DNA of 64,000 nucleotides, from positions 16,019-80,018 of the IMG/VR virus record IMGVR_UViG_3300021964_000039; one strand, 5' to 3'. A model generated the notes under the pieces. The model made no database searches, was not told where the DNA came from, and saw nothing but the letters and a program-made list of their open reading frames with translations. This document shows, one piece after another, positions 7,745-37,829 of this stretch (the first letter of the stretch is position 1; every line of letters starts with the position of its first letter). Position numbers and translations under genes: made by a program. Source of the stretch: a virus.

Positions 7745-8899
7745 ATGGCAAAAGAAATTATAAATGAGGGAACAGTTGCTAATGACGGTACAGGCGATGC
7801 TTTAAGAGTAGGTGCAGTAAAGATCAATGCTAATTTTTCAGAGATTTACAATGCTATAGGAAATGGCAATACAGTTACTAGTGTAACTAACGCAAATGGT
7901 GAATTAGATTTACCATATAATGCTAACCAAGTTCATAAAGTTTCATTTAATGTTCCAGATCTTTCAACACTGAACACTATAGATCCAGCAACTTATCAAG
8001 GTGCAATTATATCAGTTACAAATAAAGGACAATTATTTGTTGCTCACCAAAACGCTTGGCGAGGTGTACTAATGGATGCCAGTCAATCGGCCATTCCCAA
8101 TTACACTGATCCTCTAAGCACAGTAGCATATAGTGGAGACTATGGTGATTTGCAAAATACTCCTAGCTTTGCAAATGTTCCTGTTGTGATAGATGACTTA
8201 CAAGATGTCGATACTACAAGTATTACACCTGCTACAGGAACTGTGCTTAAATGGAACGGCGCACAATGGGTACCAGGAGCTGATATTACAGCAGGAGGTA
8301 CAGGAGTAGATAGTGATACTTTAGACGGACAAGACGGAAGTTATTATCTAAACTACAATAACTTTTTCAACAAACCAACTTTAACACTTGCAGGCATACT
8401 TGCAAACGGCAATAGTGCTGATAGAGGTATTTTTCCAAACGCTAACAACCAATACAAACTAGGCGATGTAAACTTAGTATGGTCAGAGGTACATGCAACT
8501 ATATTTGAAGGAACTGCAACTTCAGCAGAATATGCTGACTTAGCTGAAATATATGAGCCTGATCAGGAATATCCAGCTGGCACTGTTGTATGCCTTGGTG
8601 GTGAAAAAGAAATTACAAAAAGTAATAGTGTTGCAAGCACAAAAGTTTTAGGAGTTATTTCCACTTTACCAGCATATTTAATGAACAAAAATGCAAAAGG
8701 CTTACCAGTTGCTTTGCAAGGAAGAGTCCCTTGTAAAGTACAAGGACCTGTTAGTAAAGGGGATATGCTAGTTAGTGGATTAGACGGTGTTGCTATTCCT
8801 ACAGCAGAATTTGTAGGTGGAGCTATGATAGGAAAAAGTTTAGAAGATCATAATGAAGATTCAATAGCTACTATAGAAATTGTAGTTGGAGTACGATAA
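7745..8899 (+). CDS. Tail fibre/baseplate-associated protein with C-terminal intramolecular-chaperone (peptidase G2-like) domain, paralogue B1
   Basis: N-terminal gp9/gp10-like AK..IN.GTVANDGTGD.LR....KIN.NF.EIY; C-terminal YADLAE..GVIST.PAYLMN..VALQGRVPCKV..KGD.LV. Confidence 0.75.
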   Translation: MAKEIINEGTVANDGTGDALRVGAVKINANFSEIYNAIGNGNTVTSVTNANGELDLPYNANQVHKVSFNVPDLSTLNTIDPATYQGAIISVTNKGQLFVAHQNAWRGVLMDASQSAIPNYTDPLSTVAYSGDYGDLQNTPSFANVPVVIDDLQDVDTTSITPATGTVLKWNGAQWVPGADITAGGTGVDSDTLDGQDGSYYLNYNNFFNKPTLTLAGILANGNSADRGIFPNANNQYKLGDVNLVWSEVHATIFEGTATSAEYADLAEIYEPDQEYPAGTVVCLGGEKEITKSNSVASTKVLGVISTLPAYLMNKNAKGLPVALQGRVPCKVQGPVSKGDMLVSGLDGVAIPTAEFVGGAMIGKSLEDHNEDSIATIEIVVGVR

Positions 8900-29267: not shown

Positions 29268-30359
29268 ATGGCAGGTAACAATAATTTTGCAGACAATTTA
29301 CTATCGGGTCTCCTAAATCCTAAAGGAAATTTAGGTGATTTCCAACATGCGGCACGTCTTTATGTTGATGATTATTTCAGGTTAGCACCTAAAACTAAAT
29401 TTCTATATTTTGTTAACTGGAAAATAAATGAAGAAGTACAACAACTTTTTCTTAAAGGAGCCCAGCAAAAACATTTATTAGAAGCTGCTCTACTTGTTAA
29501 ATCTATTGATTTGCCGTCATTAGACATGCGTGTTGAAACAAAGAATTCTTACAATAGAAAGAAGAATTACCATACAGGCATAACCTATGATCCTATAAAT
29601 GTTACAATGCATGACGATAATTATAGCACAACAACTGCTTTACTAGAAGCATATTACAGATACAACTATGCTGACGGTAATGCACTTAAAGAACAAAACG
29701 ACCCAAGGTATGCATCTAGAAATACATACGGTAATAGTGAAACTAGAAAATATAAGTACGGATTAGATTATAGTTATGCTAATAATCCTTTACAGATTAA
29801 AAGACCTTTCTTTGATAGTTTTGATATATACCAATTTTCGAGAAAATTCTTTACAAAATTTAGTTTAATAAATCCTATCATAACTAATATTCAACACGAT
29901 ACCATGGACCAGTCTGATGGACAAACACCATCACAAAATAGATTTTCACTAATGTACGAAGCAGTAGTATACGGCCAAGGAGAAATTAAAGATGGTGATC
30001 CTGCAGGATTTGCTGAAATACATTATGACAAAACACCAAGTCCTCTAAGTTTAGAAGGTGGTGGTATTTCAAGTTTCTTTGGCTCAGGAGGAGCAATTGA
30101 AGGCGTAGGGAAATTGGGATTATTACTAGGTGGTGAAAACCCATCTTTGTTGACAGCTGCTATAGTTGCAGGTAACCTTGCAAATAACTCAAAAGATTTA
30201 GATAGCGAAAAATTTAAAGCTGAAGCGACTGCAATAACAATCAATCAAATAACAAGTATTCAACCTGAGGATGTTTCTGGACAATATTCAAGTATAAGTG
30301 CTGATATTCCAGTAACTGGTAATGAACCAGTCACATCAACAGACCAAAGGAAAGCATAA
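29268..30359 (+). CDS. Tail tube-like / baseplate tube initiator (gp54/gp48-like)
   Basis: VKSIDLP, NSYNRK, YDP....HDD, LINP.I; position after the tube gene. Confidence 0.6.
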   Translation: MAGNNNFADNLLSGLLNPKGNLGDFQHAARLYVDDYFRLAPKTKFLYFVNWKINEEVQQLFLKGAQQKHLLEAALLVKSIDLPSLDMRVETKNSYNRKKNYHTGITYDPINVTMHDDNYSTTTALLEAYYRYNYADGNALKEQNDPRYASRNTYGNSETRKYKYGLDYSYANNPLQIKRPFFDSFDIYQFSRKFFTKFSLINPIITNIQHDTMDQSDGQTPSQNRFSLMYEAVVYGQGEIKDGDPAGFAEIHYDKTPSPLSLEGGGISSFFGSGGAIEGVGKLGLLLGGENPSLLTAAIVAGNLANNSKDLDSEKFKAEATAITINQITSIQPEDVSGQYSSISADIPVTGNEPVTSTDQRKA

Positions 30360-30370
30360 GGAAGACAAAA

Positions 30371-30745
30371 ATGCAAACAGACTACAATGAAGCAATTATA
30401 AGTAAAAAAGATAGTGCAGATTCTGTTGTTGGTTACTTTGATACATATTTTGATGCACCTATTTCATATGCACAAAATGAATTAGATGCTGTAGTAGGAT
30501 TTTTCCAAAATGCAGGCTTTGGACAAGAGTCAGCAACTAGTATCGCAGGAGTATTGTTGTTTCAAGCAAAATTAGAAAATGTTCCAGTAATGAAACTAAT
30601 TGATACATTAAAGCAATACACACCTCCACAACTATCACAAGTAGTGAGCCAGATTGTAAATAATTATAGATCTAATACTAGTGCAATAGGTTACAAAAGT
30701 GACAGACCACCTAGTGATTATGCAAGTAGAAACATAAAGGCTTAA
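30371..30745 (+). CDS. Hypothetical protein
   Basis: ORF with RBS in the structural operon. Confidence 0.6.
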   Translation: MQTDYNEAIISKKDSADSVVGYFDTYFDAPISYAQNELDAVVGFFQNAGFGQESATSIAGVLLFQAKLENVPVMKLIDTLKQYTPPQLSQVVSQIVNNYRSNTSAIGYKSDRPPSDYASRNIKA

Positions 30746-30747
30746 TA

Positions 30748-31182
30748 ATGGCCAAATTCGCTCAGGGTAAGTTTAAACCCAAAAATCCTGACAAATATAT
30801 GGGAAACAGAACTCCTACTTATCGCAGTAGTTGGGAATTTGCATTTATGAGATTTTGTGATGAACATCCTAGTGTATCAAAATGGGCTAGTGAGAGTATT
30901 AAAATTCCTTATAGGAATCCATTAACAGGTAAGCAAACAATTTATGTTCCTGATTTTTTTGTAGTATATATTGACAAAAAAGGAAAACAACGAGTTGAAC
31001 TAATAGAAGTCAAACCCGAAAATCAAACTATAAGAGAAAAGTTAGGTAGAAGCAAAGCAAATCAGGCGCATTGGGTTTTGAATCAAGCAAAATGGGAAGC
31101 GGCTAGAGCATATTGCAAACAAAAAGGAATATTCTTTAGAATAGTAAACGAGTCTGATATATTTCATAACGGAAGAAGATAA
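30748..31182 (+). CDS. gp4: Head completion nuclease (T4 gp4, TnsA-like)
   Basis: PKNP.KY.G, YRSSWE..FM..CD, WASE...IPY, YVPDF, IEVKP, N.AKW.AA. Confidence 0.92.
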   Translation: MAKFAQGKFKPKNPDKYMGNRTPTYRSSWEFAFMRFCDEHPSVSKWASESIKIPYRNPLTGKQTIYVPDFFVVYIDKKGKQRVELIEVKPENQTIREKLGRSKANQAHWVLNQAKWEAARAYCKQKGIFFRIVNESDIFHNGRR

Positions 31183-31799
31183 TGGCAATTATGGTAAAAG
31201 ACCCCTACCACGCAACATTTATACATATTGCAAAAACAGGAGGCAGTAGCGTTACTGTTTGGTTAAAAAGTAATTTTGATGTGTATACTACAAAAACTAA
31301 GATGGGCGCAGATGTATACCAAACTAAAAGAGTATTTGATACAGATAATATTGGTTGGACGTTTTGTACAGTAAGAAATCCTTGGAGGATTGCAGTTAGC
31401 TGGTATAGTTTTTTGTGCTTACAAAATCAAGGACGTATAAAGCATGTATTAGAATCAGATCAGGTGTTATCAAATAAGAAAAAATATAATTTAGATTATT
31501 TGTATGCTGAAAAAAGTAGATTAGAAAAAGGGTTTGAAAGATGGGTAACGTATGGACTAAGAACACCTTTGTGGAAAAAAGCTGAACAGTGTGATTATGT
31601 TATGAAATTAGAAACCATACATAGAGATTTCAAAGAAGTACAAAAAAGATTAGGATGCTATACAGTGTTACCTCATCTTATGAGAAGTGATATTAACCGT
31701 GCAAGTTGGCAGTCATACTATACAAATAAAGAAACTATAGATATTGTAGCAAATCATTACAAAAAAGATATTGAACTGTATGGGTACGACTTCAGCTAA
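31182..31799 (+). CDS. Sulfotransferase (Sulfotransfer_2-like)
   Basis: FIHIAKTGGSS (5'-PSB), VRNPW...VSWY (3'-PB), Y..DI...GY.F. Confidence 0.8.
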   Translation: MAIMVKDPYHATFIHIAKTGGSSVTVWLKSNFDVYTTKTKMGADVYQTKRVFDTDNIGWTFCTVRNPWRIAVSWYSFLCLQNQGRIKHVLESDQVLSNKKKYNLDYLYAEKSRLEKGFERWVTYGLRTPLWKKAEQCDYVMKLETIHRDFKEVQKRLGCYTVLPHLMRSDINRASWQSYYTNKETIDIVANHYKKDIELYGYDFS

Positions 31800-31823
31800 A
31801 TAGTAGTATATTATGGAAGTGTC

Positions 31824-32318
31824 ATGACTAAAAAATTAGAAGAATTATTAAATTTACCTGATAGTAAAGAAATAATAGACGAAGCAAAAACAAAAGAAAC
31901 AAAAACCGAAATTGTTGAATCAGAACAAACAATTAGAGACATTGCCGAGTTTGATAAAATTGCTGGAGCTTTACCTAGTGTAAAAGGTTTAGGCGAAAAA
32001 GCAGACGTAGAGTTAGATGATATTGCACAACGGGCTTTAAGCAGTTATGAAGATTTAATGGATCTAGGAATGAATGTTGAAAGCAGATACAGTGGCAGGG
32101 TATTTGAAGTTGCAGGTAGTATGTTAAAAACTAGTTTAGATGCAAAAGTTGCTAAACTAGATAAAAAACTGAAAATGATAGACCTACAACTTAAAAAAGA
32201 AAAATTAGATAAAGACAGCTCATCAAGCGACGGTGACCTTGTTAACGGGGAAGGCTATGTTGTTACAGATAGAAACAGCCTACTTGAACGGTTAAAAGGC
32301 ATGCAGAATGATAAATAG
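31824..32318 (+). CDS. gp16: Probable terminase small subunit
   Basis: Helical protein with R.FEVA..ML and C-terminal DRNSLL; upstream of gp17. Confidence 0.6.
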   Translation: MTKKLEELLNLPDSKEIIDEAKTKETKTEIVESEQTIRDIAEFDKIAGALPSVKGLGEKADVELDDIAQRALSSYEDLMDLGMNVESRYSGRVFEVAGSMLKTSLDAKVAKLDKKLKMIDLQLKKEKLDKDSSSSDGDLVNGEGYVVTDRNSLLERLKGMQNDK

Positions 32319-32339
32319 TTTATAAGATAGGATGTTACA

Positions 32340-32897
32340 ATGAAAACATTTAAAGATTTTTTGACAGAAGGCAAAAAGACCTATAGTTTCAAAATTGGTA
32401 TTGCGGGTCAGTTGCCTGAAAACATAGAAGATACTTTAGAAACTTGCTTGGAAAAATACAATATAGTAAATTTTTCTAAGTCAAAGACAACTCCTATACA
32501 AGAAAGACCACTAGATTTTCCGCAGTTACAAAATATGGAAGTAACTTATTTTGAAACTGAAGTAAATTATCCTACTACTGTACAGGTAATGCAAGAGTAT
32601 TTGGCAAGAGGTTGTGATATTGATCAAGGACACATTATTGTTCGTAGTCCTGATGAACCACAAGAGCTTTATCAAGCACCTAAATCAGAAGAACCTTATG
32701 AAGCAATGCTTACAAAAGAAGATATGGGCGGTGAGAGCGCACAAGATAGTGTAGCCGGAAATCGTGTTATGGACCTGCTTAAAGAGCTAGAAGTAGCTAG
32801 AAAAGAAAGAGGACATGACGGTGCTGAAGGTGCTCCAACTGGTGAATCAAGTGATATTACACTAGAAACAAACGACAAAAGCCCGATAGGAAGTTAA
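32340..32897 (+). CDS. Putative internal head protein with T4-type capsid-targeting sequence
   Basis: N-terminus MKTFKDFLTE resembles the T4 IP CTS (MKTYQEFIAE); late promoter at 32312. Confidence 0.55.
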   Translation: MKTFKDFLTEGKKTYSFKIGIAGQLPENIEDTLETCLEKYNIVNFSKSKTTPIQERPLDFPQLQNMEVTYFETEVNYPTTVQVMQEYLARGCDIDQGHIIVRSPDEPQELYQAPKSEEPYEAMLTKEDMGGESAQDSVAGNRVMDLLKELEVARKERGHDGAEGAPTGESSDITLETNDKSPIGS

Positions 32898-32899
32898 TT

Positions 32900-33667
32900 A
32901 TGGAATTAAAAAATTTACTACAACAAATGAAAGACATTGAAACTGCAGAGGCATTAAAAGAGAATCCTATGCCATCAGGAATGCCTCCAATGGGTGCTCC
33001 ACAAATGGACCAAGGATCTCCAGTTTCAATGAATGTAAGTCTTAATGCTAGTGGAAAAGATCACGTTGAAGATTTAATAGATATGATGAAAAACGCTGGC
33101 TTAGGTAGTGCAAAAGAAGTAGATCAAGATATGATGCCTGTAAGACAAGATATGGAAAGACTACAAAAAGTTTTTTCTAAAGGTGATGATAAAGATGGTA
33201 AACTTGATTTAGATATAGATGGTGATAATCAGCCTGATTTAGATACCGAAGGTTATGACAACGAACCTGAAGATGAATATCAAGATACAGAATATATGAC
33301 TAAAGATTTGTCAGGTGGCCTAAATAGAGAAAAAGATAAACATGCATTGAGAGCAAAAGATCCAGCAATTCATGTAGAAGATATTAAAGCAATTCTTCAA
33401 TCAGCATTATCTGAAAAAATGAAGAGCAAAAAAAGCAAAAAACCAAATGATGGTAATCTCGCAAACAATGCTAAGCCATATGATAAAGTAACAAGAGCAG
33501 ACGTTATTGCAGGAGCTACTGGCAATGACGAAATGGGCGGCAAGAAAAAGAAAAGTGAAGACATTGCTATTGAAGGCCGTGGCAAGAAAAATAAAAAGAA
33601 GATGGAAGATATAAAAACTGTCGAAGGCAGAGGACGCGGCAGAGGACGCGGCAAAGGAAAAAAATAA
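32900..33667 (+). CDS. Putative internal head/core protein with an acidic middle and a K/R/G-rich tail
   Basis: Low complexity; MMKNAGL motif; ends in EGRGRGRGRGKGKK. Confidence 0.5.
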   Translation: MELKNLLQQMKDIETAEALKENPMPSGMPPMGAPQMDQGSPVSMNVSLNASGKDHVEDLIDMMKNAGLGSAKEVDQDMMPVRQDMERLQKVFSKGDDKDGKLDLDIDGDNQPDLDTEGYDNEPEDEYQDTEYMTKDLSGGLNREKDKHALRAKDPAIHVEDIKAILQSALSEKMKSKKSKKPNDGNLANNAKPYDKVTRADVIAGATGNDEMGGKKKKSEDIAIEGRGKKNKKKMEDIKTVEGRGRGRGRGKGKK

Positions 33668-33670
33668 ATC

Positions 33671-33697
33671 AATAGCGCCGGAAGGCGCTATTTTTTT
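33671..33697 (+). terminator. Intrinsic terminator
   Basis: AATAGCGCC-ggaa-GGCGCTATT followed by a T run. Confidence 0.9.
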
Positions 33698-33711
33698 GGT
33701 TAAATACTTTC

Positions 33712-35292
33712 ATGAGTAAATCACTTGACGGCGTATTAACTAAAAAAGCCAATCAAAAAGAAACATATTCTGAAGAGCAAATTGCAGACATAATGGCGTG
33801 TATGGATCCTGCTGATGGATATCTATACTTTGCACGTAAGTTTGCATTTATACAGCATCCGGTAAAGGGCAAATTACTTTTTGATCCTTTTGAGTACCAA
33901 GTAAGGTTATTACACAGTTATCATAATCATCGATTTAACATCAATATGTTGCCAAGGCAGACAGGTAAAACTACCTGTGCGGCAATATATCTTATATGGT
34001 ATGCAATGTTTCATCCTGACCAAACAATATTAATTGCAGCTCACAAATACACAGGCTCACAAGAAATCATGCAACGCATACGATATGTTTATGAAACCTG
34101 TCCTGACCATATTCGTGCAGGTGTTACAAATTATAATAAGGGTAGTATTGAATTTGAAAATGGATCACGTATAGTAAGTGCAACTACAACGGGCAACACA
34201 GGACGTGGTATGTCCATATCATTACTATACTGTGACGAGTTTGCATTTGTACAACCTAATATTGCAGACGAATTTTGGACTTCAATATCTCCTACACTTG
34301 CAACAGGTGGTCGTGCTATTATTACAAGTACTCCTAACTCAGACGAAGATACATTTGCCAATATTTGGAAACAAGCAGAACAAAAATTTGATGAACATGG
34401 CAACGAAAGTGATACAGGTGTAAACGGATTCTTTTCATTTACTTGTCATTGGAATGAACACCCTGACAGAGATGAAGAATGGAAATCGGCTGAAATTGGG
34501 CGTATTGGTGAAGAAAGATTTAGACGAGAATATGGATGCGAGTTTCTAGTATTTGATGAAACATTAATCAATAGCATACATCTTGTTACTATGGAGGGAA
34601 TAAGTCCTATATTAAACATGGGCCAAACAAGATGGTATAAAAAACCTACTAGCCAATACACATATGCAGTAGCTCTTGATCCTAGTATGGGCACCGGAGG
34701 CGATTTTGCAGCAATACAAGTTTTTGAATTACCTACATATAAACAAGTAGCTGAGTGGCAACACAACCAAACTGCTATACCCGGGCAAATACGTGTACTG
34801 GCAGATATTTGCAATTACATAAAACAAGAATGTAAAACAGATACAAATATATACTGGAGTGTAGAAAACAATGGAATTGGTGAAGCGGCACTAATTGTAA
34901 TAAATGATTTCGGAGAAGAGAATATATCCGGGATGTTTGTAAGTGAACCTATACGCAAAGGACATGTTCGCAAATTCCGTAAAGGATTTAACACTACGCA
35001 CAGTACCAAAATTACTGCATGTAGTAGATTAAAAACTATGATAGAAAATGATAAGATGTCTGTGTGTAGTAAACCTTTAATATCTGAATTAAAAAATTAT
35101 GTTGCCACAGGAAGTAGTTATCAAGCAAAAGTAGGTCATAACGATGATTTAATAAGTGCAACATTGTTAGCATTAAGAATGATGGCAGTAATGAAAGATT
35201 GGGATCCGCGAGTGTATAATACATTTACGCAGGCAGAGTCAGATGAGGATTATGACCCGCCAATGCCTATATTCATTACTAACAGTTATTGA
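33712..35292 (+). CDS. gp17: Terminase large subunit
   Basis: PRQTGKTT (Walker A), LLYCDEFAF (Walker B), TSTPN, FRREY.CEF, DPS.G.GGD, ENN, HNDD. Confidence 0.95.
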   Translation: MSKSLDGVLTKKANQKETYSEEQIADIMACMDPADGYLYFARKFAFIQHPVKGKLLFDPFEYQVRLLHSYHNHRFNINMLPRQTGKTTCAAIYLIWYAMFHPDQTILIAAHKYTGSQEIMQRIRYVYETCPDHIRAGVTNYNKGSIEFENGSRIVSATTTGNTGRGMSISLLYCDEFAFVQPNIADEFWTSISPTLATGGRAIITSTPNSDEDTFANIWKQAEQKFDEHGNESDTGVNGFFSFTCHWNEHPDRDEEWKSAEIGRIGEERFRREYGCEFLVFDETLINSIHLVTMEGISPILNMGQTRWYKKPTSQYTYAVALDPSMGTGGDFAAIQVFELPTYKQVAEWQHNQTAIPGQIRVLADICNYIKQECKTDTNIYWSVENNGIGEAALIVINDFGEENISGMFVSEPIRKGHVRKFRKGFNTTHSTKITACSRLKTMIENDKMSVCSKPLISELKNYVATGSSYQAKVGHNDDLISATLLALRMMAVMKDWDPRVYNTFTQAESDEDYDPPMPIFITNSY

Positions 35293-35303
35293 TAAATAGT
35301 AAT

Positions 35304-37751
35304 ATGAATATTGATATAGTTGCACAAGATTTATTTGATAAGATAAGAGGAACATTTCCTAATATTACAATAGGAGATGAAATGGGTTCGGTTGTAAACG
35401 AACCTGCAAAAGCAAGATTTTTTGAATTTTCATATAATCCTGTTACAGATGATAAAGTAAGCATAAGTTTATCAGGTAAAGACGGAGTTAGTGTAATGTA
35501 TTCAAAAAACATTGTTGCAAGTGATATTCAAGAAGACAAGGACAAATGGTATAACTTTCTCAGAGAGCTTAGACAATTTGCAAGAAAAAGACTTTTGAAT
35601 TTTGACACGAGAGATATAACAAAAAGTAATTTAAACAAAAGAGATTATCAATATTTGGCAAAAGCATCTGGAGAGGATACAATGACTGAATCTAAATTAT
35701 ACGGCACAAGCAGACTTAGTTATCAAGACGTTGATGGCGCAAGGCTTGTGATAAAGCATAACAAACCTGTAAACCAAGACTTAGCAGCAGGCAGAACGCA
35801 AAATATTAGTAGCATATACATAGAAAGTTCTGAAGGAGAACGGTTTAAGTATCCGTATAAACATTTAACAGGTGCAAGAGCAATGGCACGCCACGTTGCA
35901 GAAGGCGGAAATGCATATGATGACTTTGGTAAACACATTGTAGGATTATCAGAAGAACTATCAAAATTGCGTAAATTTAAAAATTATATGTCCAGGTCAT
36001 CTGTCATGGCAGAAGGATTAGCTGATTATTTGCCAACAGTAAATGAAAGAATACAGTCAGTCAAAAAGACAATAGAAAATCTACAGAAAAAGTCATACTA
36101 TGATACATTTAAAGAAACATACCAAGCTCCAGTATTAGAAGACGTTCCCCTAGAAGTTGCAGAAAACTGGATCGATCAACTTACTATCCGCCAGTTTAAT
36201 GAGGAACTAAAAGATATATTCCCTTATATATACAATCTTGTTAGCGAAGCTTCACTAGCAGAAGAAATTGGCCCAGAAGAACTATTAGGCGAAGAAAGAG
36301 ACGATGAAAAAATTGCTAAAGAATTAATGCAAAAAGGCTATGACAGCGACAACAGTGATGAAGAACTTCAAAATGCAATGATTGAGCTAGGCTACGGAAA
36401 ATATATGACTCGTGACCGTGATCTTATTGGTGATGTGTTAGATAGACTACACGATATGACTCATGGAGAAGATGACGGCCAGCCTAGTTCATATGACGAG
36501 TATCAAGATTTGTATGGTGGTGACGAAGACTTTGGCGGCTACGACGAAGCAATCGAATCTAGCATAGAAAGGTTAATGGGCCAGTTTGGCGAAGCTGATA
36601 AAACAGATGTATTGTTCCAAATTGAAGACGAGGATGGCGACAAGTACGAAGTTGTAAAATACATGGGCAAGGTTGTTGCATTTGATGCAAATCCAGAAGA
36701 ACTGTCAGGTGGCGGAATGGGTCCATATGAGTATGATCCAAAGACTGGTACTATCGAAACTGAAAACGGTCCTAAGAAAACAAGAAAAATTGACGACCAA
36801 ACATTTGGCGAAGCAGGTGATGAAGGCGGAATGAAACAAGCCCAAATAGAAGTACAAGATTGGTTTGAAAAATTCAACGAATACAAAGGAACAAATGGCG
36901 ATGATCTAGCACAAGGATGGATACGTGCTACATTAGATACAGGCATTATGGCAGATGCTTATGACGAAAACGAAGTTGAAGCATTTAACAAAATGAAAGG
37001 TTATCCAACAGACGAGATTGATACAAGTTGGCAAAAAGATGACTTTGCAGACTTTACTTCAAATAAATCAGGTGCTAGTCCAATAACAGCCGCAATGTTT
37101 TCTACAATTAATGCTATAATGGACAAATACGGTATAGATGAAGAAGATGTCGATGATATGTCAAAAGCGGATGATCCATCATATGGCAAACCTGGTATGC
37201 GTGATGAAAGCGACGACACAGATTCTAAAGAACAAAAGACACCATTAGGCGAATTCATACTATCATATTACGATAGGCAATCAGGCGAATTTCCAAAAGG
37301 CGAAACTGCCGTATTAACCATGATAGAAAAAGATTACGGTGAAGAGTTCATAGAACCCGCAAAGGCGTTCATAGAATCAATATACCAAGTAGTTGAAAAA
37401 GTTAACAATAGTTCAGTAGAACCAATGGATGCTACTGATATGCAAGAAGAAGAAGGCAGAGAACTAAACGATGCTGACAAAAAAGTCATGCAAAAACTAA
37501 CCAGCATGGTTAAACAAAAGCAAAAAGAAATGCAAGACGCAAGAAAAGGCGGATATGACGAAGACGCAAGAATGATTGCGAGTCAACTAGAAGACTTCTA
37601 CAGTATTGCTGAACTAATCAAAGGCAATAGACCAATGGGCTTAGACAATTCAGTAATGGATCTAGTACATGATATGTACGACGAAGTTGGTGCAAAGTTT
37701 GATGAAGGCAACGAAGAACTAGATAGAATTAGAGGATTAGCCGGACTTTAA
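35304..37751 (+). CDS. Large acidic late protein; putative internal head polyprotein (start moved to ATG 35304)
   Basis: TAAATA-N5-ATG; modular acidic C-terminal half; ends in ELDRIRGLAGL. Confidence 0.55.
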   Translation: MNIDIVAQDLFDKIRGTFPNITIGDEMGSVVNEPAKARFFEFSYNPVTDDKVSISLSGKDGVSVMYSKNIVASDIQEDKDKWYNFLRELRQFARKRLLNFDTRDITKSNLNKRDYQYLAKASGEDTMTESKLYGTSRLSYQDVDGARLVIKHNKPVNQDLAAGRTQNISSIYIESSEGERFKYPYKHLTGARAMARHVAEGGNAYDDFGKHIVGLSEELSKLRKFKNYMSRSSVMAEGLADYLPTVNERIQSVKKTIENLQKKSYYDTFKETYQAPVLEDVPLEVAENWIDQLTIRQFNEELKDIFPYIYNLVSEASLAEEIGPEELLGEERDDEKIAKELMQKGYDSDNSDEELQNAMIELGYGKYMTRDRDLIGDVLDRLHDMTHGEDDGQPSSYDEYQDLYGGDEDFGGYDEAIESSIERLMGQFGEADKTDVLFQIEDEDGDKYEVVKYMGKVVAFDANPEELSGGGMGPYEYDPKTGTIETENGPKKTRKIDDQTFGEAGDEGGMKQAQIEVQDWFEKFNEYKGTNGDDLAQGWIRATLDTGIMADAYDENEVEAFNKMKGYPTDEIDTSWQKDDFADFTSNKSGASPITAAMFSTINAIMDKYGIDEEDVDDMSKADDPSYGKPGMRDESDDTDSKEQKTPLGEFILSYYDRQSGEFPKGETAVLTMIEKDYGEEFIEPAKAFIESIYQVVEKVNNSSVEPMDATDMQEEEGRELNDADKKVMQKLTSMVKQKQKEMQDARKGGYDEDARMIASQLEDFYSIAELIKGNRPMGLDNSVMDLVHDMYDEVGAKFDEGNEELDRIRGLAGL

Positions 37752-37800: not shown

Positions 37801-37829
37801 TTGACTTATGCTAAATAATATCGTATAGT
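37801..37829 (+). promoter_or_regulatory. Sigma70 promoter with a nested late promoter for gp32
   Basis: TTGACT-17-TATAGT; TAAATA at 37812-37817 lies inside the spacer. Confidence 0.8.

Follow-up and report, generated by a model that had tools for sequence, protein, structure and literature searches.

Gene X is an open reading frame on the + strand (positions 35304-37751, 815 amino acids) of a 64,000-nucleotide stretch of viral DNA, hereafter the window, which is part of an 80-kb IMG/VR contig (IMGVR_UViG_3300021964_000039), estimated to be 22% complete, of an uncultured marine jumbo phage. It follows the gene for the large terminase subunit (TerL), and its ATG at 35304 is consistent with the N-termini of the homologues. 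The X protein is a mosaic late protein, in which a string of swapped domains is combined with a scaffold-type tail, and we regard it as probably cargo targeted to the prohead, since in these phages the scaffold-position protein has a C-terminal peptide of the same kind. The C-terminal peptide would be a prohead-loading tag, docking X inside the procapsid as the scaffold's own end does. It would bind the site of the scaffold tail, on the major capsid protein or the portal, and X would be carried into the head as cargo. A T4-type prohead protease might trim the tag and perhaps cut the linkers, and the surviving domains of X may enter the host together with the DNA. The domains of the string are traded as in-frame DNA cassettes between phages, and between X and a mosaic gene on the other side of TerL.

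The C-terminal peptide and the scaffold-position protein

The C-terminal peptide of X, DEGNEELDRIRGLAGL (37704..37748, + strand), is a scaffold-type terminal motif and a putative prohead-targeting tag. The pattern E-phi-x-R-[IM]-[RK]-x-L-A-G-[LI](R), with phi a hydrophobic residue, belongs to a peptide of 10-12 residues and forms the C-terminal end of 203 of the 241 X-family members, whatever precedes it. Of 120 proteins whose genes are in the scaffold position, flanked by those for the T4-type prohead protease and for the major capsid protein, 119 end in a similar pattern, [VI][DE][IL][RK]RLAG[LI][NK]. In the Pseudomonas jumbo phage PA5oct, the head module consists of the portal, two small proteins, the prohead protease, a 368-amino acid protein and the major capsid protein, which is the T4 order gp20-67-68-21-22-23. 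The 368-amino acid protein ends in VEELRRLAGIK and is the only member of the module without an ESI-MS/MS (electrospray ionization coupled to tandem mass spectrometry) flag, as expected of a scaffold. The equivalent protein ends in DLDRLTKIAGIRK in Vibrio phage 2.275.O and in HELRRLAGIEK in Sinorhizobium phage Phosso, while in three marine contigs with X the ends are VVELKRLAGLK, VIDIRRLAGLN and VINIRRLAGLN. The strict motif occurs just twice in a 167.5-kb relative (G001), in the scaffold-position protein and in X, both times at the extreme C-terminus (0.2 in shuffles); a relaxed motif adds, in both genomes, the gene directly upstream of TerL.

X itself is not a scaffold by position: it follows TerL, and the scaffold-position gene is a separate one, of 362-470 amino acids (PHROG 10922). 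What X has of the scaffold is the extreme C-terminal phi-x-[RK]-x-LAG[LI] peptide. Over the rest of its length X is not similar to the scaffold-position protein (best BLASTP E-value against the L097 scaffold 0.059, over 30 residues). Only the terminal peptide is thus common to both proteins, as expected of a docking tag. T4 gp22 does not have the motif and ends differently, and a search of PDB sequences with the scaffold profile found nothing.

A T4-type prohead protease (PF03420) is encoded by all three cultured relatives considered (PA5oct, Phosso and Vibrio phage 2.275.O) and by three of five marine contigs carrying X; the Glu-specific protease invoked by the initial annotation, which was made from the letters of the window, is therefore present in relatives. 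The PA5oct homologue of X is on the mass spectrometry list of that phage's virion, with an ESI-MS/MS flag (PMC7318152). The association with the virion or prohead that the initial annotation had proposed is supported indirectly, by this entry and by the scaffold-type tail. The label 'structural protein' of the homologue in Pseudomonas jumbo phage MIJ3 was discarded as evidence, being transferred and not measured; only four proteins of that phage were identified by mass spectrometry (PMC6892783).

Some further observations concern the scaffold position. The Phosso homologue of the scaffold-position protein (L124, 245307-246719 of the record) does not come immediately after the protease gene; its annotation as 'DNA double-strand break repair Rad50 ATPase' is probably a false hit caused by coiled-coil sequence. 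Upstream of the prohead protease, a protein of 270-314 amino acids (L005 592-1404, L097 541-1452, L098 492-1436) starts with M..(K/R)..LE..LE.L(V/L)N(E/N)D. The scaffold starts with MLDALK.LFEN, and several carriers of the mobile cassette described below start with MRDILDALE.I or MDFRELLNKLD. These similar amphipathic N-termini might be a second, N-terminal targeting signal.

Domain structure of X

AlphaFold models were built with family alignments; the features given here are all on the + strand. The conserved N-terminal domain (N-domain; residues 1-330, 35304..36293) is predicted to have an alpha+beta part followed by a helical bundle, with a mean predicted local distance difference test score (pLDDT) of 85.6 in the AF2 model. 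The C-terminal half is modelled as four units, folded confidently or fairly confidently, with poorly modelled linkers between them. An acidic linker (residues 331-433, 36294..36602; net charge -21, pLDDT below 50) comes first, and its end holds the family motif phi-E-x-x-phi-E-x-x-MGQF[GAS][ED] (residues 421-430, nucleotides 36564-36593), present in about half of the family members. Module B (residues 434-503, 36603..36812), ending in ..DDQTFGE, is a small beta-rich domain of six strands, with a pLDDT of 64-89 over residues 434-497. It is followed by the mobile cassette (residues 507-635, 36820..37208, EGGMKQAQIEVQDW...DDPSYGKPGMRDE), a helical domain of net charge -18, modelled as compact with a pLDDT of 94-97 over residues 506-625. 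The 'FPKGET' mini-domain (residues 642-703, 37227..37412) is a compact unit of about 60 residues, with a pLDDT of 94-96 over residues 643-702. Module E (residues 723-800, 37470..37703) is modelled as three long helices, with a pLDDT of 60-88 over residues 723-812. The linkers between the folded units (residues 498-505, 630-642 and 704-717) are short and of low confidence. The FPKGET unit is present in 228 of the 287 proteins collected, and the DNA match of its region to about 70 loci begins at 37227.

The last 485 residues are acidic (D+E 25%, K+R 11%), with Glu alone making up 11.5%, and the charges of the C-terminal half sum to about -65. The initial annotation had described this part as a chain of unrelated acidic modules. 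The chain is real, but its links are predicted to be folded domains instead of merely acidic peptides. In all, X is modelled with at least five folded units, and family searches gave no recognisable enzymatic activity. Pfam, NCBIfam and PHROGs were searched with X and with each module separately (Pfam at E<=0.01 for X and E<=1 for its pieces) and gave nothing except PHROG 13484 for the N-domain; none of the modules matched a known DNA-mimic or anti-defence family. A fold search with the model of the 485 C-terminal residues as a whole returned generic helical hairpins only (Z 8.2 or less), and a search of the ESM Atlas with the cassette returned only unnamed viral clusters. No paralogue of any module is found elsewhere in the 80-kb contig.

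Exchange of domains as in-frame cassettes

The cassette at 36820-37208 is identical to positions 8485-8873 of another contig (L007) in 387 of 389 nucleotides (99.5%), while the sheath, tube and TerL genes of the window and of that contig are only 66-70% identical. In L007 the cassette is located inside a different gene, that of the 507-amino acid protein P0265, between the genes on the small terminase subunit (TerS) side and TerL. The junctions are sharp, and the flanks are unrelated on both sides. Ten further loci carry it at 82-96% identity (82-91% in a set of nine), compared with 67-78% for TerL and the N-domain, and in every one of the 11 loci it is more similar than TerL. The cassette, or its helical domain, occurs in at least five protein architectures, of which at least four lack the N-domain of X, and twice it is in tandem. 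Throughout 25 distinct contexts it starts with ..[NDE]-E-G-x-[MF]KQAQIE and ends with DDPSYxKPxMR, with unrelated sequence outside. We interpret these matches as recent horizontal transfer of an in-frame domain of about 130 codons, in part between non-orthologous genes. An intein or homing element was rejected as an explanation: splice-junction residues and an endonuclease are both lacking, and the protein keeps the cassette as a well-folded domain.

A second kind of exchange is seen in the contig encoding P0001, which is 90.9% identical to the window at the nucleotide level over 29328-36276. P0001 is 99% identical to X over residues 1-330, 81% over residues 331-430 and 86-90% over residues 642-815, but the block of residues 431-641 is replaced; module B is gone, and the version of the helical domain found there is only 27% identical. 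The breakpoints are directly after ..LMGQF[G/A]E and directly before KEQKxPLGEF. They are therefore in both of the anchors conserved in the family, MGQF and FPKGET, which points to homologous recombination in the anchors.

Other segments have their own histories. Module B, absent from P0001, is 80-93% identical in P0002, P0003, P0005 and P0287, although the N-domains of these proteins are 28-67% identical (in P0287, 28% for the N-domain against 80% for module B). The helical domain is 79-92% identical in carriers with N-domains of 57-66%, and in P0274 it is 80% identical against 39% for the N-domain. Module E is 86-90% identical in P0001, P0005, P0008-12 and P0018 (N-domains 59-99%), and 88-90% in carriers with an N-domain of only 59-61%; its region (37462-37707) has 88% nucleotide identity to another locus, L071. 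The order of the modules is permuted in P0014-16, where FPKGET comes ahead of the helical domain, and in P0046. These segment identities are incongruent, so each segment has its own phylogeny and its own closest relatives.

Exchange proceeds by two routes. One is homologous recombination within the conserved anchors, namely the MGQF helix and the FPKGET domain, of which P0001 is an example; the other is illegitimate insertion, in frame and at the edges of domains, exemplified by the 389-nucleotide cassette. The idea of shuffled cassettes, put forward in the initial annotation, is strongly supported by these comparisons and by the modelled units of the C-terminal half. As it had anticipated, a scaffold of about 330 residues at the N-terminus is conserved, C-terminal modules are gained and lost, and a module-by-module search found one of them, the cassette, in other late proteins; modules are also replaced and permuted; the junctions, expected at Glu sites, are not systematically there.

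Probable prohead cargo or possible assembly factor

Several observations weigh against prohead-targeted cargo. The PA5oct mass spectrometry list contains 93 products, including seven 'virion-unrelated enzymes', and in the PA5oct record the neighbouring proteins similar to single-stranded DNA-binding protein (SSB) and to UvsX are flagged as well. The X proteins of PA5oct and Vibrio phage 2.275.O do not have the tail; that of Phosso ends in ..ARLRKLAGI. The scaffold assignment is based on gene position, absence from the mass spectrometry list and helical, charged character; compared with T4 gp22 by hhalign, the scaffold family scores a probability of 4%. Prohead protease, scaffold and major capsid protein genes are all missing from the 80-kb, 22%-complete contig. 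The net charge of the C-terminal half, about -65, sets X apart from the T4 internal proteins, which are basic, and would not favour a place within packed DNA. The LysM domains of some homologues fit better with an exposed or periplasmic role.

Alternatively, X could be an assembly factor acting in the prohead core or at the portal-terminase vertex. Its scaffold-type tail would dock it, the acidic region would be a DNA-repelling spacer in which any inserted domain is tolerated, and the protein would, as the scaffold is, be expelled or degraded at maturation. The co-transcription with TerL suggested by the gene order, the tail in common with the scaffold-position protein and an N-domain conserved as much as TerL would all agree with such a role, and strong negative charge with about 100 poorly modelled residues is scaffolding-protein-like. 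A mere spacer, however, is not expected to retain well-folded domains (pLDDT 94-97), nor to spread a domain at 99.5% nucleotide identity across diverged phages and into other genes. LysM, zinc-ribbon-like and other modules in the family suggest functional payloads, and in PA5oct it is the X homologue that is on the virion list and not the scaffold-position protein. We consider an assembly factor rather unlikely.

Glutamate sites and micro-repeats

The initial annotation had gone beyond cassettes: X would be a polyprotein cut at xGE and other Glu sites, the codons of these sites (in TTTGGCGAAGC and ATTAGGCGAA) would double as microhomologies for recombination, and acidic DNA-mimic effectors would be injected. 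All the motifs it listed are present, LLGE at residues 327-330, THGE at 386-389, QFGE at 427-430, TFGE at 500-503, MRDE at 632-635, DMQE at 712-715 and KFDE at 798-801, as is the terminal ELDRIRGLAGL at 805-815. Five of the seven sites are hydrophobic-x-Glu and lie in linkers or at their edges (residues 330, 430, 503, 715 and 801), and relatives have the Glu-specific T4-type protease. However, in the poorly modelled linkers sites of the T4 gp21 type ([LIVMF]-x-E) number five, with 4.9 expected, so they are not enriched.

The repeats are also where they were reported to be, in frame, and each occurs just twice in the window. The two copies of the 11-nucleotide repeat TTTGGCGAAGC are at 36585..36595, inside the MGQFGEA family motif (which contains the first QFGE), and at 36804..36814, at the C-terminal end of module B (TFGEA), both on the + strand. 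Those of the 10-nucleotide repeat ATTAGGCGAA, also on the + strand, are at 36284..36293 (LLGE), the last codons of the N-domain, and at 37244..37253 (PLGE), inside the conserved FPKGET domain. One copy of each is therefore in a conserved anchor beside the block replaced in P0001, which favours the microhomology idea. Set against this is their frequency. X contains 21 families of direct repeats of at least 10 nucleotides, three exact 12-mers among them, and its longest exact repeat, 12 nucleotides, is the modal value in codon shuffles (11-13 expected). Over the whole frame there are 10 pairs of 11-mers, compared with 4.7 ± 3.1 in 500 codon shuffles (P=0.08), and in the C-terminal part three, compared with 2.1 (P=0.34). 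The repeats are at chance level, and the micro-repeats amount to FGEA and LGE recurring in a protein whose Glu content is 11.5%. A tandem or internal duplication was rejected as the source of the two FGEA sites, since the first is part of the MGQF motif found family-wide, and in other carriers module B constantly ends in the second.

The cassette identity starts 6 nucleotides past the second copy of the 11-mer, the spacing differs in the other carrier, and the flanks are unrelated; among the 25 contexts there is no constant xGE before or after the cassette. Endpoints of high-scoring segment pairs peak at about residues 330, 448, 506, 633 and 695-721, and breakpoints at the DNA level are at 36294, 36594, 36820, 37208 and 37227. 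Four or five of the seven boundaries proposed in the initial annotation are on measured junctions (330, 503/506, 635 and 715, and 430 weakly), while those at 389 (THGE) and 801 (KFDE) are not. QFGE at 430 is the left edge of the P0001 replacement. Of the four sharply resolved junctions, two are directly after Glu (E430 and E635), one after Asp and one after Ser. At 11.5% Glu, two or more of four after Glu has a P of about 0.07, with a bias towards common codons, on the commonest of which identity blocks tend to end. Because Glu makes up this much of the C-terminal part, modules ending in it come cheaply. The conserved N-domain, FPKGET domain and tail argue for one tethered unit, at least initially, and the lack of a match of any module to DNA-mimic or anti-defence families argues against the proposed effectors. 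That cleavage-site codons serve as recombination microhomologies is not supported, a cleaved polyprotein recombining at such codons is unlikely, and the interpretation of the initial annotation as a whole is partly supported.

The X family and its N-terminal domain

The X family has at least 1761 clusters at 50% identity and more than 3000 at 90% identity, mostly from marine metagenomes, in contigs of up to 335 kb and with protein lengths from about 430 to about 1280 residues. The cultured relatives are all distant: PA5oct, MIJ3, Phosso and Vibrio phage 2.275.O, with similarity only in the first ~315 residues (26-34% identity). With tblastn, X matches PA5oct and relatives over residues 1-315 with 27.6-27.9% identity (E about 1e-28). 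The order TerL-X-SSB-UvsX is retained from PA5oct to Phosso. X has the homologous N-domain and the TerL-to-SSB/UvsX position of the proteins of PHROG 13484, PA5oct gp278 and EST35_0206 type; PHROG 13484 ('virion structural protein') matches only residues 20-251 of X (E=3.3e-17). The family belongs to T4-distant jumbo myoviruses, mostly marine and uncultured.

Within the family the N-domain is 40-70% identical, a conservation comparable to that of TerL, and alignable orthologue DNA ends exactly at 36294. Its fold has no convincing match in the PDB (Foldseek best E-value 0.036; VIA-align best Z 6.8, to partial helices only), and in the ESM Atlas only unnamed viral clusters were found. Across 55 diverse members, the polar residues D114, E129, H152, R164, E179, H197 and D206 are invariant and H187, R180 and E174 nearly so. 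The conserved polar residues gather in the segment IKH..RT..I.SIYIES..GERFKYP.KHL.GARAMARH and could form a catalytic or metal site.

The variable part holds other modules in other members. LysM domains are present in several homologues (P0055-P0063, P0093). Many members have Cys-rich, zinc-ribbon-like inserts immediately after the MGQF motif (contexts ..MGQFADSVCEECGNP and ..MGQFSEAANDCDETC). The cassette carriers P0270 and P0272 end in a basic module that contains Cys (..RARHNCDNPGPKTKARYWSCRKW; PHROG 7595, unknown function), as does the X-family member P0174, where it replaces the LAGL tail; it looks like another module common to both gene families.

Gene neighbourhood

Upstream of TerL, in T4-like order, are the genes for a head-tail adaptor, a dNMP kinase, the tail sheath, the tube, a tube-like protein, a gp4-like head-closure protein, a sulfotransferase, a TerS-like protein and proteins of 185 and 255 amino acids. 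Between the 255-amino acid gene and TerL, at 33671-33692, is a strong terminator-like hairpin with a perfect 9-bp GC-rich stem followed by a T-run, which suggests that TerL and X are a transcription unit of their own. TerL (33712..35292, + strand; Pfam Terminase_6N and Terminase_6C) ends 11 nucleotides before X starts, and the only sigma70-like promoter match noted for the TerL-X stretch comes after X, at 37801-37829, in the gap of 142 nucleotides that separates X from the gene for a gp32-like SSB. From the gene order and the positions of terminator and promoter, X appears to be a late protein whose gene shares a transcript with TerL. The SSB gene is followed by UvsX and other recombination genes, UvsY among them.

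The 185-amino acid protein (32340-32897, + strand) matches PHROG 14802 ('virion structural protein') over its first 113 residues and starts with MKTFKDFLTE, which we take to be like the capsid-targeting leader of T4 internal proteins. PA5oct gp279, encoded between TerL and X, starts with MKLFEVFTLYE, and P0282 with MIFQEFTVNE. The 255-amino acid protein (32900..33667, + strand), from a disordered-looking sister mosaic gene, contains internally the LAGL-type motif LIDMMKNAGLGS and the YDNEPEDEYQD..LSGGLNREK motif, and has a C-terminal Arg-Gly/Lys tail. The cassette-carrying gene of P0265 in L007 is its positional counterpart. P0265-P0285 again have the pair of LAGL motif and E-Y-x-N-E-P...LSGGLNxPK, and gene 410 of Phosso has a related pair of LAG-type and N-E-P motifs.

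The LysM domains of several homologues, the peptidoglycan-binding modules of sister proteins and the hypervariable string of shuffled domains, a typical trait of phage proteins that are exposed, could also be explained if X were an external decoration of the capsid or neck, anchored by its N-domain and displaying variable domains for adhesion, with Hoc-like or fibre-like shuffling. We consider this very unlikely: the extreme C-terminal motif is common to an internal assembly protein, structure searches gave no Ig-like or other known decoration fold, and the TerL-flanking sister proteins have N-termini (such as MKTFKDFLTE) like T4 capsid-targeting sequences (PMC9026906). That X is a replication or recombination accessory, recruiting partners through an acidic, tail-bearing linker like the C-terminal tips of SSB, would suit its place directly upstream of the genes for gp32-like SSB, UvsX and UvsY, the conserved synteny and the SSB-like layout of a disordered acidic region with a conserved tip, but is hardly credible, given that X abuts TerL and is separated from gp32 by 142 nucleotides with a promoter-like site, that the tip motif matches the scaffold-position protein and no replication protein, and that there is no nucleic-acid-enzyme or OB-fold signal.

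Relation to known systems

As prohead cargo, X is best compared with the T4 internal proteins (IPI, IPII, IPIII and Alt), for which targeting peptides, C-terminal processing of Alt and hypervariability of the internal proteins have been described (PMC9026906, PMC3012670). In both cases cargo proteins otherwise unrelated would enter the scaffolding core by means of a short terminal peptide, related phages have hypervariable sets of such cargo, and a gp21-type Glu-specific protease is present in the lineage; Alt, with propeptides at both ends, is a precedent for a C-terminal one. In T4, however, the tag is the N-terminal 10 residues, whereas that of X would be C-terminal and common to the scaffold-position protein. 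X does not have an N-terminal propeptide of about 10 residues ending in Glu; its residues 3-17 are modelled as a helix (pLDDT 94) that packs into the conserved domain and shares its conservation. X is also large (815 amino acids), strongly acidic and multi-domain, with a conserved N-domain, and it varies by domain swaps inside one gene, while T4 swaps whole small genes.

Polyvalent proteins of phages and conjugative elements combine 2-15 domains of disparate activities in one polypeptide, with predicted delivery together with the DNA (Iyer et al. 2017, PMC5512222). X resembles them in its several unrelated domains, its combinatorial network of architectures and possible delivery and proteolytic processing, and one homologue is named 'Large polyvalent protein-associated domain-containing protein' in BFVD. 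Their signature domains (zincin-like MPTase, ArdC-N, DarB-type methylase-helicase and LPDs) were not found in X or in the 55 family members scanned, and processing of X, if any, would be by the prohead serine protease and not by an internal metallopeptidase.

For the tag itself there are further parallels in other shells. Scaffolding proteins, classically that of P22, have coat-binding C-terminal ends, and encapsulin cargo has C-terminal loading peptides. As in these, a short C-terminal peptide after a flexible region, the sole element common to scaffold and cargo, would dock inside a shell of HK97 fold, on its inner face; unlike these, the motif of X (phi-x-R-phi-x-x-LAG[LI]) is lineage-specific. 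The exchange of domains also has parallels. Repoila and co-workers in 1994 and Arbiol and co-workers in 2010 are said to have described modular shuffling in T4-type genomes, with hyperplastic regions and mobile regulatory cassettes. There, as in X (residues 431-641, from MGQF to FPKGET), a variable block between conserved anchors is replaced through recombination at short conserved stretches. In X, by contrast, the exchange is intragenic, in frame and at the level of domains, and it also connects non-orthologous genes without flanking homology.

Significance

Hypervariable head proteins loaded by tags are already known, as are polyvalent, multi-domain injected proteins (PMC5512222), and X has neither the N-terminal capsid-targeting sequence of the former nor the signature domains of the latter. 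What is new is a large uncharacterised family, a C-terminal tag in common with the scaffold, and the transfer of nearly identical cassettes within and between genes. Tentatively, the tag might be a portable capsid-loading signal for both scaffold and cargo, and the genes flanking TerL might be libraries of effector domains that are loaded, freed by the protease, delivered and traded as cassettes of about 390 bp; that this would hold for a whole clade of marine and soil jumbo phages, abundant worldwide, is an equally speculative suggestion.

If the tail is a loading tag, it would provide a simple sequence rule to predict head-borne proteins of uncultured jumbo phages, and a candidate tag for packaging foreign proteins. 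The X family comprises thousands of clusters, and no function is assigned to it. The domain string of X directly attests to recent gene flow that is intragenic and at the level of domains, between phages with core genes only about 70% identical and including different genes, and the exchanged domains are prime candidates for functions in host interaction or counter-defence.

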